Source of the DNA: Eledone cirrhosa
Lineage: Eukaryota
Length of the DNA stretch: 64,000 nt
NCBI GenBank assembly: GCA_964016885.1
Contig: OZ024749.1
Coordinates: 26,908,001 to 26,972,000, forward strand
Direction of reading: 5' to 3'
Below the pieces are notes generated by a model. It did not search any database, had not been told where the DNA came from, and worked only from the letters and a program-made list of their open reading frames with translations. Positions within the stretch are counted from its first letter, which is position 1, and every line of letters starts with the position of its first letter. The position numbers and the translations under genes are program-made. Positions 34,101-40,100 of the stretch are shown one piece after another.

Positions 34101-37100
34101 ATATATATACATATATACATATATATACATACATATATACATATATACATATATATACATACATATATATATATATACATATATATATATACATATATAT
34201 ACATATATATATATACATATACATATATATACATATATATATATACATATATATACATATATATATATACATATATATATATACATATATATATATACAT
34301 ATATATATATACATATATATATATACATATACATATATATACATATATATATATACATATATATACATATATATATATATACATATATATATATACATAT
34401 TATATATACATATATATATATACATATATATGTATATACATATATATATACATATATATGTATATACATATATATGTATATACATATATATATATATACA
34501 TATATATATATATACATATATATATATATATACATATATATATATATACATATATATATATACACATATATATATATAACATATATATATATATATACAT
34601 ATATATATATATACATATATATATATATATACATATATATATATATACATATATATATATACATATATATGTATATACATATATATATATATACATATAT
34701 ATATTATATATACATATATATATATATACATATATATATATACATATATATGTATATACATATATATATATACATATATATACATATATATATATACATA
34801 TATATGTATATACATATATATATACATATATATATACATATATATATACATATATATACATATATATATATATATATACATATATATACATACATATATA
34901 TATACATATATATACATATATATATACATATATATACATATATATATACATATATACATATATATATACATATATATACATATATATATACATATATATA
35001 TATATATATATACATATATATACATATATATATACATATATATACATATATATATACATATATATATATATATATACATATATATATATCTACATATATA
35101 TATATCTACATATATATATACATATATATATATATACATATATATATACATATACATACATACATATACATATATATATATACATATACATATATACATA
35201 CATATATATATATACATATATATATATATACATATATATACATACATATACATACATATATATATATACATACATACATACATATACATACATACATACA
35301 TACACATATATATATATACATATATATATATATACACATATATACATATATATATATATATATACATATATACATATATATATACACATATATACATATA
35401 TATATATATATATACATATATACATATATATATATATATATACATATATACATATATATATCATATATATATATATATATATATATATATACATATATAC
35501 ATATATATATACATATATATACATATATACATATATATATATACATATATACATACATATATACATATATACATACATATATACATATATATATACATAT
35601 ATAATATATATACATATATATATATACATATATATATATATACATATATATATATATACATATATATATATATACATATATATATATATACTATATATAT
35701 TATACATATATATATATATACATATATATATATATACATATATACATATATATATATATATATACATATATATATATAGTATGCTAGGGAAAGGATCAGG
35801 GGTGTATAACACTCCACTTATCCAGTAGGCAGTATGAGGTTAGCTCAATGTCTGAGGACAGAGCCGTAATATAATAAATAAATAACAAAGAACGCTTATA
35901 GCATATGCATATCTTTACTTGCTAACATTGTTTCATCACACTATAAGTGGGACTCATCAGAGCATAAAGGTTAATTACATACCATACAAGCAATAACAAA
36001 TCCAAGACATTGAAGAATGAAAGGTAATAATAGACGATAGAGGATAAGAATAAAAAATAAAAATAAAAGTAAAAATAAAAATAAAAATAAAAATAAGGGG
36101 TGCTATCTGTCACAGTTGGGCGGTGTGCTGTCAACATATAGTTACATACAAGCATACACATGGATAAGAGAACAGACAAGAGTAGACAATGGATAAGAGA
36201 ACAGACAAGAGTAGATAAGATAATGGGATTAGGTAAGAGTAGGTAAAAAATAGGTAAAAAATAGGTAAAAAACAGACTTATAATATATATAAAAAGAAAT
36301 ACAAAGAAATACATAACAAACTTACATATAAAATATAAAATATAGGGTAAGGAATGAGATAAAATAATATACAATTAAAAATTAAAAATTATATACATAG
36401 AACATAATATAGTATAATCGTAAAATAAGATAAAATAAGGTAAACTAAAATCAAATAACATAGACTAAATTAAAATCAAATGTGTAATTATAATTATATG
36501 TATAATTAAATGTAATTAAATGTAATTAAATAAATAAATAAATAAATAAATAAATAAAAATTAAATAAATAAATAAAATTAAAATTTAAATTTTAAAATT
36601 TTAAAATTAAAATCTAAATTTAAATAAATAAATAAATAAATAAATAAATAAATAAATGGAGTCAAGTAAGTAAATAAATAAAATTAGATAACATGAAATG
36701 AAATAAAATAAAATGAAATAAAGTAAATTGAGATAAGATATATATTTTTTTAGAATATATCTCTTGAATATATCAGGGGCCCACGAAGGCACTAAATGTC
36801 ACAGTTATGTGTATCACTTGACCAATTTTTCAAAATATATTTCTTGAAAACATCAGGGGCCCACGAAGGCACTAAGTGTCACAGTCACCAGTATCACTTG
36901 ACCATTGCAAGGCAATGGAGGCGTCCCAGGTTGGGCAGTCTCGAAAGTTCACTCGAAAGTCATGGGTGTGCATTCACACAGTTGAGCGGTGGGGTAATCA
37001 CAAACCGGTTCACACACCAATTTTTTTAAAATATATTTCTTGAAAACATCAGGGGCCCACGAAGGCGCTAAGTGTCACAGTCACCAGTATCACTCGAGCG

Positions 37101-40100
37101 GTGGGGTAATCACAAACCGGTTCAACACGGGCAGGAGTCAAATGGTCAGAGAGGTGCATCAAAGGAGGTAGAAGAATTCACATGCATTAGCAAGCGTGAG
37201 GTTAAAGCAAGCAGATACAGTTGTAGCGCATACAAAATATAAAAAGATAGCTTCAAGAGCTATTAAGTCACCGCATTGGGACATCACAAGATTGTACACA
37301 TCAATATGTTCAGTACGTATATGCACGTATACACACCACATGCACATGCAGAGACGGTATACATATATATATATATATATTTTTTTATATATATACACAC
37401 AGACACATATAACCACCTACACCCATACACATATAAATGTATACACGGGCACACACGCACACACACACAGCGTAGGACACCCGGGTCAAAGCCGATATTA
37501 AATACGATATTAAATACAATATTAAATATTAAACACCGAAATACCACATTAGATCAGACCCACCACCACAGGTAATATATTCAAAACAAATACATACGAT
37601 GAGATGTATTAAAATAAAGTTGAAATCCTACGGAGATATTCATGTCTGCACGTGCCATTGACCGACTCGAATCAGTCAATGGCACGTGCAGACATGAATA
37701 TCTCCGTAGGATTTCAACTTTATTTTAATACATCTCATCGTATGTATTTGTTTTGAATATATTACCTGTGGTGGTGGGTCTGATCTAATGTGGTATTTCG
37801 GTGTTTAATATTTAATATTGTATTTAATATCGTATTTAATATCGGCTTTGACCCGGGTGTCCTACGCTGTGTGTGTGTGCGTGTATGCCCGTGTATACAT
37901 TTATATGTGTATGGGTGTAGGTGGTTATATGCGTCTGTGTGTATATATAAAAAAATATATATATATATATATGTATACCGTCTCTGCATGTGCATGTGGT
38001 GTGTATACGTGCATATACGTACTGAACATATTGATGTGTACAATCTTGTGATGTCCCAATGCGGTGACTTAATGGCTCTTGAAGCTATCTTTTTATATTT
38101 TGTATGCGCTACAACTGTATCTGCTTGCTTTAACCTCACGCTTGCTAATGCATGTGAATTCTTCTACCTCCTTTGATGCACCTCTCTGACCATTTGACTC
38201 CTGCCCGTGTTGAACCGGTTTGTGATTACCCCACAGCTCGAGTGATACTGGTGACTGTGACACTTAGCGCCTTCGTGGGCCCCTGATGTTTTCAAGAAAT
38301 ATATTTTAAAAAAATTGGTGTGTGAACCGGTTTGTGATTACCCCACCGCTCAACTGTGTGAATGCACACCCATGACTTTCGAGTGAACTTTCGAGACTGC
38401 CCAACCTGGGACGCCTCCATTGCCTTGCAATGGTCAAGTGATACTGGTGACTGTGATACTTAGTGCCTTCGTGGGCCCCTGATGTTTTCAAGAAATATAT
38501 TTTGAAAAATTGGTCAAGTGATACACATAACTGTGACATTTAGTGCCTTCGTGGGCCCCTGATATATTCAAGAGATATATTCTAAAAAAATATATATCTT
38601 ATCTCAATTTACTTTATTTCATTTTATTTTATTTCATTTCATGTTATCTAATTTTATTTATTTACTTACTTGACTCCATTTATTTATTTATTTATTTATT
38701 TATTTAAATTTAAATTTAGATTTTAATTTTAAAATTTTAAAATTTTAATTTTAATTTTATTTATTTATTTAATTTTTATTTATTTATTTCTTTATTTATT
38801 TATTTAATTACATTTAATTACATTTAATTATACATATAATTATAATTACACATTTGATTTTAATTTTAATTTAGTCTATGTTATTTGATTTTAGTTTACC
38901 TTATTTTATCTTATTTTACGATTATACTATATTATGTTCTATGTATATAATTTTTAATTTTTAATTGTATATTATTTTATCTCATTCCTTACCCTATATT
39001 TTATATGTAAGTTTGTTATGTATTTCTTTGTATTTCTTTTTATATATATTATAAGTCTGTTTTTTACCTATTTTTTACCTATTTTTTACCTACTCTTACC
39101 TAATCCCATTATCTTATCTACTCTTGTCTGTTCTCTTATCCATGTGTCTACTCTTGTCTGTTCTCTTATCCATGTGTATGCTTGTATGTAACTATATGTT
39201 GACAGCACACCGCCCAACTGTGACAGATAGCACCCCTTATTTTTATTTTTACTTTTATTTTTATTTTTTATTCTTATCCTCTATCGTCTATTATTACCTT
39301 TCATTCTTCAATGTCTTGGATTTGTTATTGCTTGTATGGTATGTAATTAACCTTTATGCTCTGATGAGTCCCACTTATAGTGTGGATGAAACAATGTTAG
39401 CAAGTAAAGATATGCATATGCTATAAGCGTTCTTTGTTATTTATTTATTATATTTATTATTTATTATATTTATCATATATATATATATACATCTATATAT
39501 ACATACATATATATATACATACATACATATATATACATATATATACATATATATACATATATATATATACATATATATACATATATATACATATATATAT
39601 ATACATACATATATATATATACATACATATATATATATACATATATATATATACATACATATATATATATACATACATATATATATATACATACATATAT
39701 ATATATACATACATATATATATATACATACATATATATACATACATATATATATATACATACATATATATATATACATACATATATATACATACATATAT
39801 ATATATACATACATATATATACATACATATATATATATACATACATATATATACATACATATATATATACATACATATATATATATACATATATATACAT
39901 ACATATATATATATACATATATATACATATATATATATATACATATATATACATATATATATATATATACATATATATATATATATATACATATATATAT
40001 ATATATATATACATATATATATACATACATATATATACATACATACATATATATATACATATATATACATATATATACATACATACATATATATATATAC

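Follow-up and report, generated by a model that had tools for sequence, protein, structure and literature searches.

A palindrome of about 3.6 kb in the genome of Eledone cirrhosa (assembly GCA_964016885.1, contig OZ024749.1, positions 26,908,001 to 26,972,000 of the forward strand; this stretch of 64,000 nt is called the window below) is very probably one insertion of a young, multi-copy and autonomous Penelope-like element (PLE). Judged by sequence comparison, it consists of two head-to-head, 5'-truncated copies of the non-coding 3' end of that element. The palindrome itself, its two hammerhead motifs, its 89 unmirrored bases and its location in an intron are real. The arms are colinear with the 3' part (the last 1.8 kb) of a unit of ~5.09 kb that was found in partial tandems and in which ~2.4 kb of non-coding sequence follows the stop codon. 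Element positions given below are coordinates on this full-length unit, and loci fetched from the genome are named by L and a number. An open reading frame (ORF) of 829-830 aa is present in 6 of 19 distinct copies keeping the exact start context; the copy in the window is without it. A first look at the genome yielded 1146 candidates for the hammerhead end, and all 40 that were scored were 100% identical. In the loci whose ends were inspected, the outer ends reach TA repeats. Taken as a whole, this explanation has high confidence; the mode of origin proposed below is considerably less certain.

The palindrome and its parts

The features of the palindrome and its flanks are as follows (window positions).

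30875-35778, no strand: left (TA)n/(TACA)n microsatellite, the insertion target (Tandem Repeats Finder; C-rich on the + strand)
35779-35867, - strand: PLE tail, 89 nt (94 with a shared TATA), element positions 5092-5185, lying upstream of the ORF start in tandem copies
35868-37664, - strand: left arm, 5'-truncated copy of the 3' non-coding region (element ~3247-5091; with the tail to 5185)
35920-35964, - strand: left hammerhead motif, type I, its stem II shortened by a private deletion of 1 nt
37665-37671, + strand: head-to-head junction, 7 nt present in the right arm only and 1 nt common
37665-39454, + strand: right arm, 5'-truncated and tail-less (element ~3240-5091)
39357-39402, + strand: right hammerhead motif, type I, the commonest sequence of the family, with a predicted cut after 39398
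39455-42948, no strand: brief re-iteration of the AT-rich end, followed by the right (TA)n/(TACA)n microsatellite

Alignment of the arms (35868-37664 and 37672-39454) gave 1765 matches, 9 substitutions and 8 gaps. Bases 35779-35867 are without a mirror counterpart on the right. Judged from the tandem copies, these 89 bases are the tail of the PLE, i.e. the sequence that follows the element end there; most tailed copies have it at the corresponding position with a match of 95-99%, and in L031 it runs into the ORF. The centre is an imperfect fold, the right arm extending 7 nt farther toward the 5' end of the element (37665-37671), and a TCGA palindrome is present in the junction. Among 35 stop-to-stop frames of at least 50 aa in the palindrome, judged by eye, no gene-like ORF was found. 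The + strand is C-rich in both flanks (C:G 447:9 on the left and 427:1 on the right), and the flanks are therefore not mirrored. A preliminary description of the window had reported a 3.6-kb palindrome with outward hammerheads near its ends, about 90 unmirrored bases on the left, unmirrored flanks of the TACA type and no credible ORF, all of which was borne out. The spacer-free fold that it described stands as a palindrome but not as a perfect centre, and the differences between the arms, described as substitutions and repeat-unit indels only, are mostly of these kinds but include an indel of 1 nt in the left stem II. The AT-rich last bases at tail-less ends are sometimes repeated once or twice before the TA repeat, as if the reverse transcriptase (RT) had re-primed; this was seen at 39455-39470 of the window and in L067, L072, L087, L096, L118.

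It is hardly credible that the palindrome is an artefact of assembly or of a folded-back read, although no read spanning it was found and a 200-N assembly gap (30675-30874) lies directly left of the 4.9-kb left microsatellite. The flanks are unmirrored, the ends are the two exact ends of the family, as in 37 of 39 other pairs, and both arms carry unique sequence and private changes. Seven of the 9 clean differences between the window arms are private to one arm, the junction being one of these 7. Since each arm has sequence that is absent from the other, neither is a plain copy, which counts against a folded-back read and equally against the snap-back copying considered below. The preliminary description had likewise preferred an inserted retroelement to an artefact, on the grounds of the unmirrored flanks and the ~90 unmirrored bases on the left, and the unique sequence in each arm agrees with that view.

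Both hammerhead motifs, read directly from the sequence, are of type I and point outward, with a predicted cut ~56 nt from the mirrored end. The 41-nt core of the right motif has 142 exact matches in the genome, and 88 of 113 motifs in the fetched loci are identical to the right motif; the 1-nt stem II deletion of the left motif occurs in 1 of the 113. The arm is multi-copy and its hammerhead conserved elsewhere, as the preliminary reading of a mobile element presupposed. The hammerhead in the sense of the host transcript is the copy with the stem II deletion. An Rfam search of the window gave no match to a hammerhead family, only microRNA-shaped matches below the gathering score, and single-strand folding did not yield a complete hammerhead fold, although stem II forms in the right copy. 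Metazoan PLE hammerheads of the same build were found not to cleave as single motifs in vitro, and hammerhead pairs on opposite strands, 100-700 bp apart, have been described (PMC4209133). On either strand of the palindrome, transcription would reach the antisense copy before the sense hammerhead, and the two would pair. For this reason, and because single motifs of metazoan PLEs remained uncleaved in vitro, the hairpin is unlikely to cleave itself. The transcript hairpin with a self-cleaved 3' end, as pictured in the preliminary description, is thereby made doubtful, the left motif moreover lacking 1 nt of stem II.

That description had also proposed a distinct non-autonomous fold-back element, which would move as a 3.6-kb palindrome via its self-cleaved hairpin RNA. 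The lack of an ORF would fit such an element, as would the finding of three loci with a nearly equal palindromic form of 3.5 kb: besides the window there are two further, independent palindromes of this size, which fold at 3236/3236 and 3258/3234 and were found by a search at the fold site, and hence form a biased sample. The three junctions differ, however, and a full-length match of the window junction was found here only among the 40 scored of 304 candidates. Fold points in the family as a whole span more than 4 kb, the arms follow the 3' non-coding sequence of an autonomous PLE, and the hammerhead would be paired within the hairpin. A fold-back element of this kind is therefore very improbable.

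The encoded protein and known Penelope-like elements

The AlphaFold model of the 829-aa protein has a pLDDT of 81, and the top two Foldseek matches are telomerase RTs (E ~1e-9) at a modest TM score of ~0.3. The YRDD and VY-x11-YIG cores are kept in 21-22 of 22 aligned proteins, as are R733, H736, E792 and N805 of the C-terminal GIY-YIG nuclease. A sequence search of the PDB with the single protein gave one irrelevant match, and a profile search weak matches to retron RTs. With its telomerase-like RT and GIY-YIG nuclease, partial tandems, inverted copy, tail and hammerhead motif, the element has the sequence features of a PLE carrying an endonuclease (EN+). The preliminary description had linked the palindrome to Penelope by way of its hammerheads and inverted copies; the arms indeed correspond to the 3' end of a PLE that encodes both RT and GIY-YIG domains. 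A donor-like site is present at element position 3315 (window 37740) and an acceptor-like site just before the ATG (~2825 in L031), and these predicted sites could bound a 1.9-kb intron whose splicing would remove hammerhead and tail from the mRNA. The unspliced leader contains 43 ATGs.

The motifs RWR38, DKT121, CNCRRASGC688, CNLC786 and CPH814 agree with the description of the Hydra clade, which includes Hydra-1_Obim of Octopus bimaculoides and Penelope-13_HM (Craig et al. 2021, PMC8557442). As set out in that text, the clade has in common with our element a C-terminal GIY-YIG nuclease, the motifs RW[K/R], DKT and CxCx5C, and CxxC and CxH around a conserved E and N, as well as a type I hammerhead near the 3' end with a short palindromic stem III and a (TA)n target. 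The clade is further described as lacking a CCHH motif in the nuclease core; in the present protein, only one conserved His was found in residues 731-800. Penelope-13_HM is listed with an attached 5'-truncated inverted copy, as is seen here (PMC8557442), and the Hydra-1_oBim hammerhead, compared by eye, has the same build but another sequence. Unlike the Hydra families, the present element has a 5.1-kb unit, ~2.4 kb of 3' non-coding sequence and an Asn/Gly-rich linker of 118 residues, versus 19-28 residues in 19 of 21 relatives; the linker region (residues 480-580 of P0003) is disordered, with 20% Asn and 15% Gly. ORF fragments that by eye resemble other PLE families lie beside insertions in L032 (8076-9308), L037 (1255-2382), L045 (4109-5972) and L049 (6448-7578).

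Two other assignments were considered and dropped. The Naiad clade has an N-terminal nuclease and no canonical hammerhead, whereas the present protein carries its nuclease at the C terminus and the element does have a hammerhead. Non-LTR retrozymes are likewise non-coding, derived from PLE pseudo-long terminal repeats (pLTRs) and provided with a type I hammerhead (bioRxiv 10.64898/2026.07.22.740005), but they form head-to-tail tandems, while the palindrome has two units head to head and one sense hammerhead per strand.

The Poseidon element PAc of Anolis carolinensis is the source of biochemical data. In vitro its protein, for which a dimer is predicted, both cuts and extends the two strands; synthesis begins at two sites that delimit the tail and does not need hammerhead cleavage (Frangieh et al. 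2024, PMC11167929). Like PAc, the present family has an AT-rich target, a template uncut by the hammerhead and two putative start sites, which are located 3' of the hammerhead and delimit the tail. The start sites of PAc, however, are located inside the ORF, while both ends are upstream of the ATG here, and PLE tails are given as 30-40 nt in that paper (PMC11167929), compared to 89-94 nt here. Pairing of a tailed with a tail-less end is not described in the available portion of the paper. Like the present family, Penelope of Adineta vaga (Arkhipova et al. 2013, PMC3846280) shows pLTRs in inverted orientation, of which one may carry a tail, as well as solo pLTRs and inserts rich in Asn between RT and EN; it differs by its pLTRs of ~200 bp, low copy number, membership of the Penelope/Poseidon clade and target-site duplications (PMC3846280). 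Recently active PLEs have been reported in Octopus vulgaris (PMC13282606). For PLEs in general, the literature thus already describes inverted copies truncated at the 5' end, tails on one side, hammerheads and (TA)n targets. New here are the family-wide numbers on tails, arms and 5' ends, and the family is unusual in its size (5.1 kb) and its tail (89-94 nt). A literature search, mostly outside subscription papers and the 2005/2006 PLE reviews, found no count of tails per paired insertion and no model of double priming on one RNA.

Paired insertions and the origin of the palindrome

Among 39 other head-to-head insertions in which both outer ends were seen, 37 have a tail on exactly one end, where 50% would be expected (p=1.4e-9). 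The count is 29 of 31 without the 8 pairs that have a very short second arm, and the rule also holds in 3 of 3 further two-armed loci. Excluded from the counts were L092-L094, which have their flanks in common with L039 (their inclusion gives 37/42), L097 and L103 (more diverged copies, below the 80% filter), the 5' end of L061 (adjoining a gap), stretches that overlapped, copies with a single arm and the palindrome of the window. L039, L092, L093 and L094, all on contig C19, go back to one insertion, which together with its flanks is present four times within 4.4 Mb. In 27 of 30 arm comparisons an arm is nearer to its partner than to the median other copy, and in older subfamilies the difference is marked; in one example the arms are 0.17% apart and at least 2.5% from other copies. 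Of the 5' ends within element positions 2600-4100, 9/32 fall in 3204-3254 (scan p=2.5e-4, judged against a crude uniform null), where the window palindrome also has its fold, and the 5' starts are at most 200 nt apart in 11 of 23 pairs, compared to 3.3 expected by permutation. No strong RNA hairpin was found at this 5' hotspot (z -1.6 to +0.7, windows 3100-3299).

The evidence leans toward an origin of the palindrome from two cDNAs (complementary DNAs) made on one uncleaved RNA, from two start sites, one at each side of the cut target. The two putative start sites are found ~56 and ~150 nt to the 3' side of the hammerhead cut, which implies a template that is either uncleaved or circular. The element nuclease would cut both strands of the (TA)n repeat, and each free end would prime one cDNA, one at the tail-less site and the other ~94 nt further 3', thereby acquiring the tail. 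Both cDNAs would run to a common stop near 3235 and be joined head to head by repair. The simplest reading of this stop is the 5' end of a transcript, with a stall near 3235 as the alternative. If priming occurred at the start sites within the leader and the RT ran off at the transcript 5' end, copies of the pLTR only would result. The palindrome would be a dead-end product. For tail-only inverted arms (L096, L104, L106, L112, L117, L052) the observed starts are at 5115-5135, with four at 5125-5126, immediately 3' of a hairpin that is predicted. In L035 two arms, each starting at 4914, are separated by a piece of the element (at 4210-4362) that sets in at the tail end (5183-5336); it may record RNA beyond the second start site.

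Two other routes from the same PLE were weighed. A single cDNA could have folded at its 3' end and been copied into the second arm. Such a snap-back would produce near-identical arms, often with close starts, as are indeed seen, and the TCGA palindrome at the junction would suit it. The left arm alone has a tail, however, and the right alone 7 extra 5' bases. Furthermore, in many pairs (L031, L032, L051, L082, L084, L104 and L106) the tailed arm is the shorter one and cannot have been copied from the tail-less arm. This route is accordingly quite improbable. Alternatively, the arms could derive from two RNAs, or from two units of a circular or multimeric RNA, with the halves of a protein dimer using different start sites. 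Two templates would explain the one-tail rule equally well. In L037, both alleles of 4 of 6 arm differences occur elsewhere in the genome, and circular templates have been proposed (PMC4209133). Likeness of the arms speaks against this origin, those of the older subfamily insertions L074, L080 and L081 being far nearer to each other than to any other copy, though gene conversion between arms could also produce likeness; a circular template, moreover, would give no fixed 5' end. An origin from two templates is rather unlikely, yet clearly less so than the snap-back.

Several points weigh against the reading preferred here, of a PLE insertion primed twice on one RNA. In the window, the distance between the arms (0.59%) is no smaller than that to the nearest other copies (0.57%). 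The one-tail rule has two exceptions in 39, L039 with no tail at either end and L074/L119 with two tails, and the end tables of the pairs were hand-entered and cover young copies only. In 12 of 23 pairs the starts are more than 200 nt apart, and the genome-wide number of first-look candidates drops from 332 to just 298 across the putative hotspot, less than the sampled loci suggest; the transcript 5' end near 3235 is a prediction from genomic copies alone. In four sequencing runs compared over 37635-37800, no contig was found to cross the centre, and the run of restriction-site-associated DNA sequencing (RAD-seq) had no reads there; the contigs are short and repeat-derived, may come from other individuals and do not form a real test of the assembly. 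No RNA run was among those listed as containing the sequence, which has no bearing on expression. The element protein gave no Pfam match, and just 3 of 22 relatives gave a weak RVT_1 or GIY-YIG match. Placement in the Hydra clade is suggested by motifs, not by a tree, and the unit of 5.1 kb exceeds the 1.1-3.0 kb of the listed Hydra families, for which short size is typical, not defining.

Host gene and biological meaning

The host of the palindrome is an ARHGAP29/45-like gene of the - strand, in which exons at 60998-60813 and 29502-29362 flank the insertion; this agrees with the RhoGAP intron named in the preliminary description. The nearest host exons found are the following.

60813-60998, - strand: nearest upstream host exon found (tblastn; 77-79% identity to octopus proteins)
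29362-29502, - strand: nearest downstream host exon found (tblastn)

About 60 residues of the homologue are without a located exon, and the exon bounds are those of the nearest exons found, the intron ends being approximate. PDB searches with single host exons were uninformative. The host gene further harbours, past the right microsatellite, an open frame of 1174 aa (43567-47088, + strand) with an RVT_1 and a weak zf-RVT match, apparently an intact non-LTR retrotransposon, and a tandem array of 85 copies of a 35-bp unit (20291-23273, 97% matches). A tRNA-like Rfam match of 33.8 bits at 5094-5151 (+ strand), with similar sequence again near 49.9 kb, is probably the head of a short interspersed nuclear element (SINE).

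Long hairpins in coleoids undergo RNA editing. If the host intron is transcribed through the palindrome, the resulting 1.8-kb hairpin would be a likely substrate for RNA editing or for small RNAs, and any such hairpin RNA would derive from the host pre-mRNA. The locus itself is an ordinary truncated insertion; its value lies in the pattern across the family. The origin of the inverted repeats and tails of PLEs has been named an open question (PMC8557442), and with one tail per insertion, matched arms and a shared 5' stop, this young, multi-copy family with intact ORFs and a long, easily scored tail would provide a clean genomic test of PLE integration, and offers a candidate protein. It is possible, if still short of probable, that integration of PLEs is obligately two-ended, a protein dimer starting two cDNAs at fixed positions of the same RNA, one from either end of a double-strand cut. 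If true, this would account for the inverted pLTR and the one-sided tail together, and in this family leader-primed copies running off at the transcript start would give rise to recurrent spacerless palindromes of 3.5 kb, i.e. sources of long double-stranded RNA in host introns.

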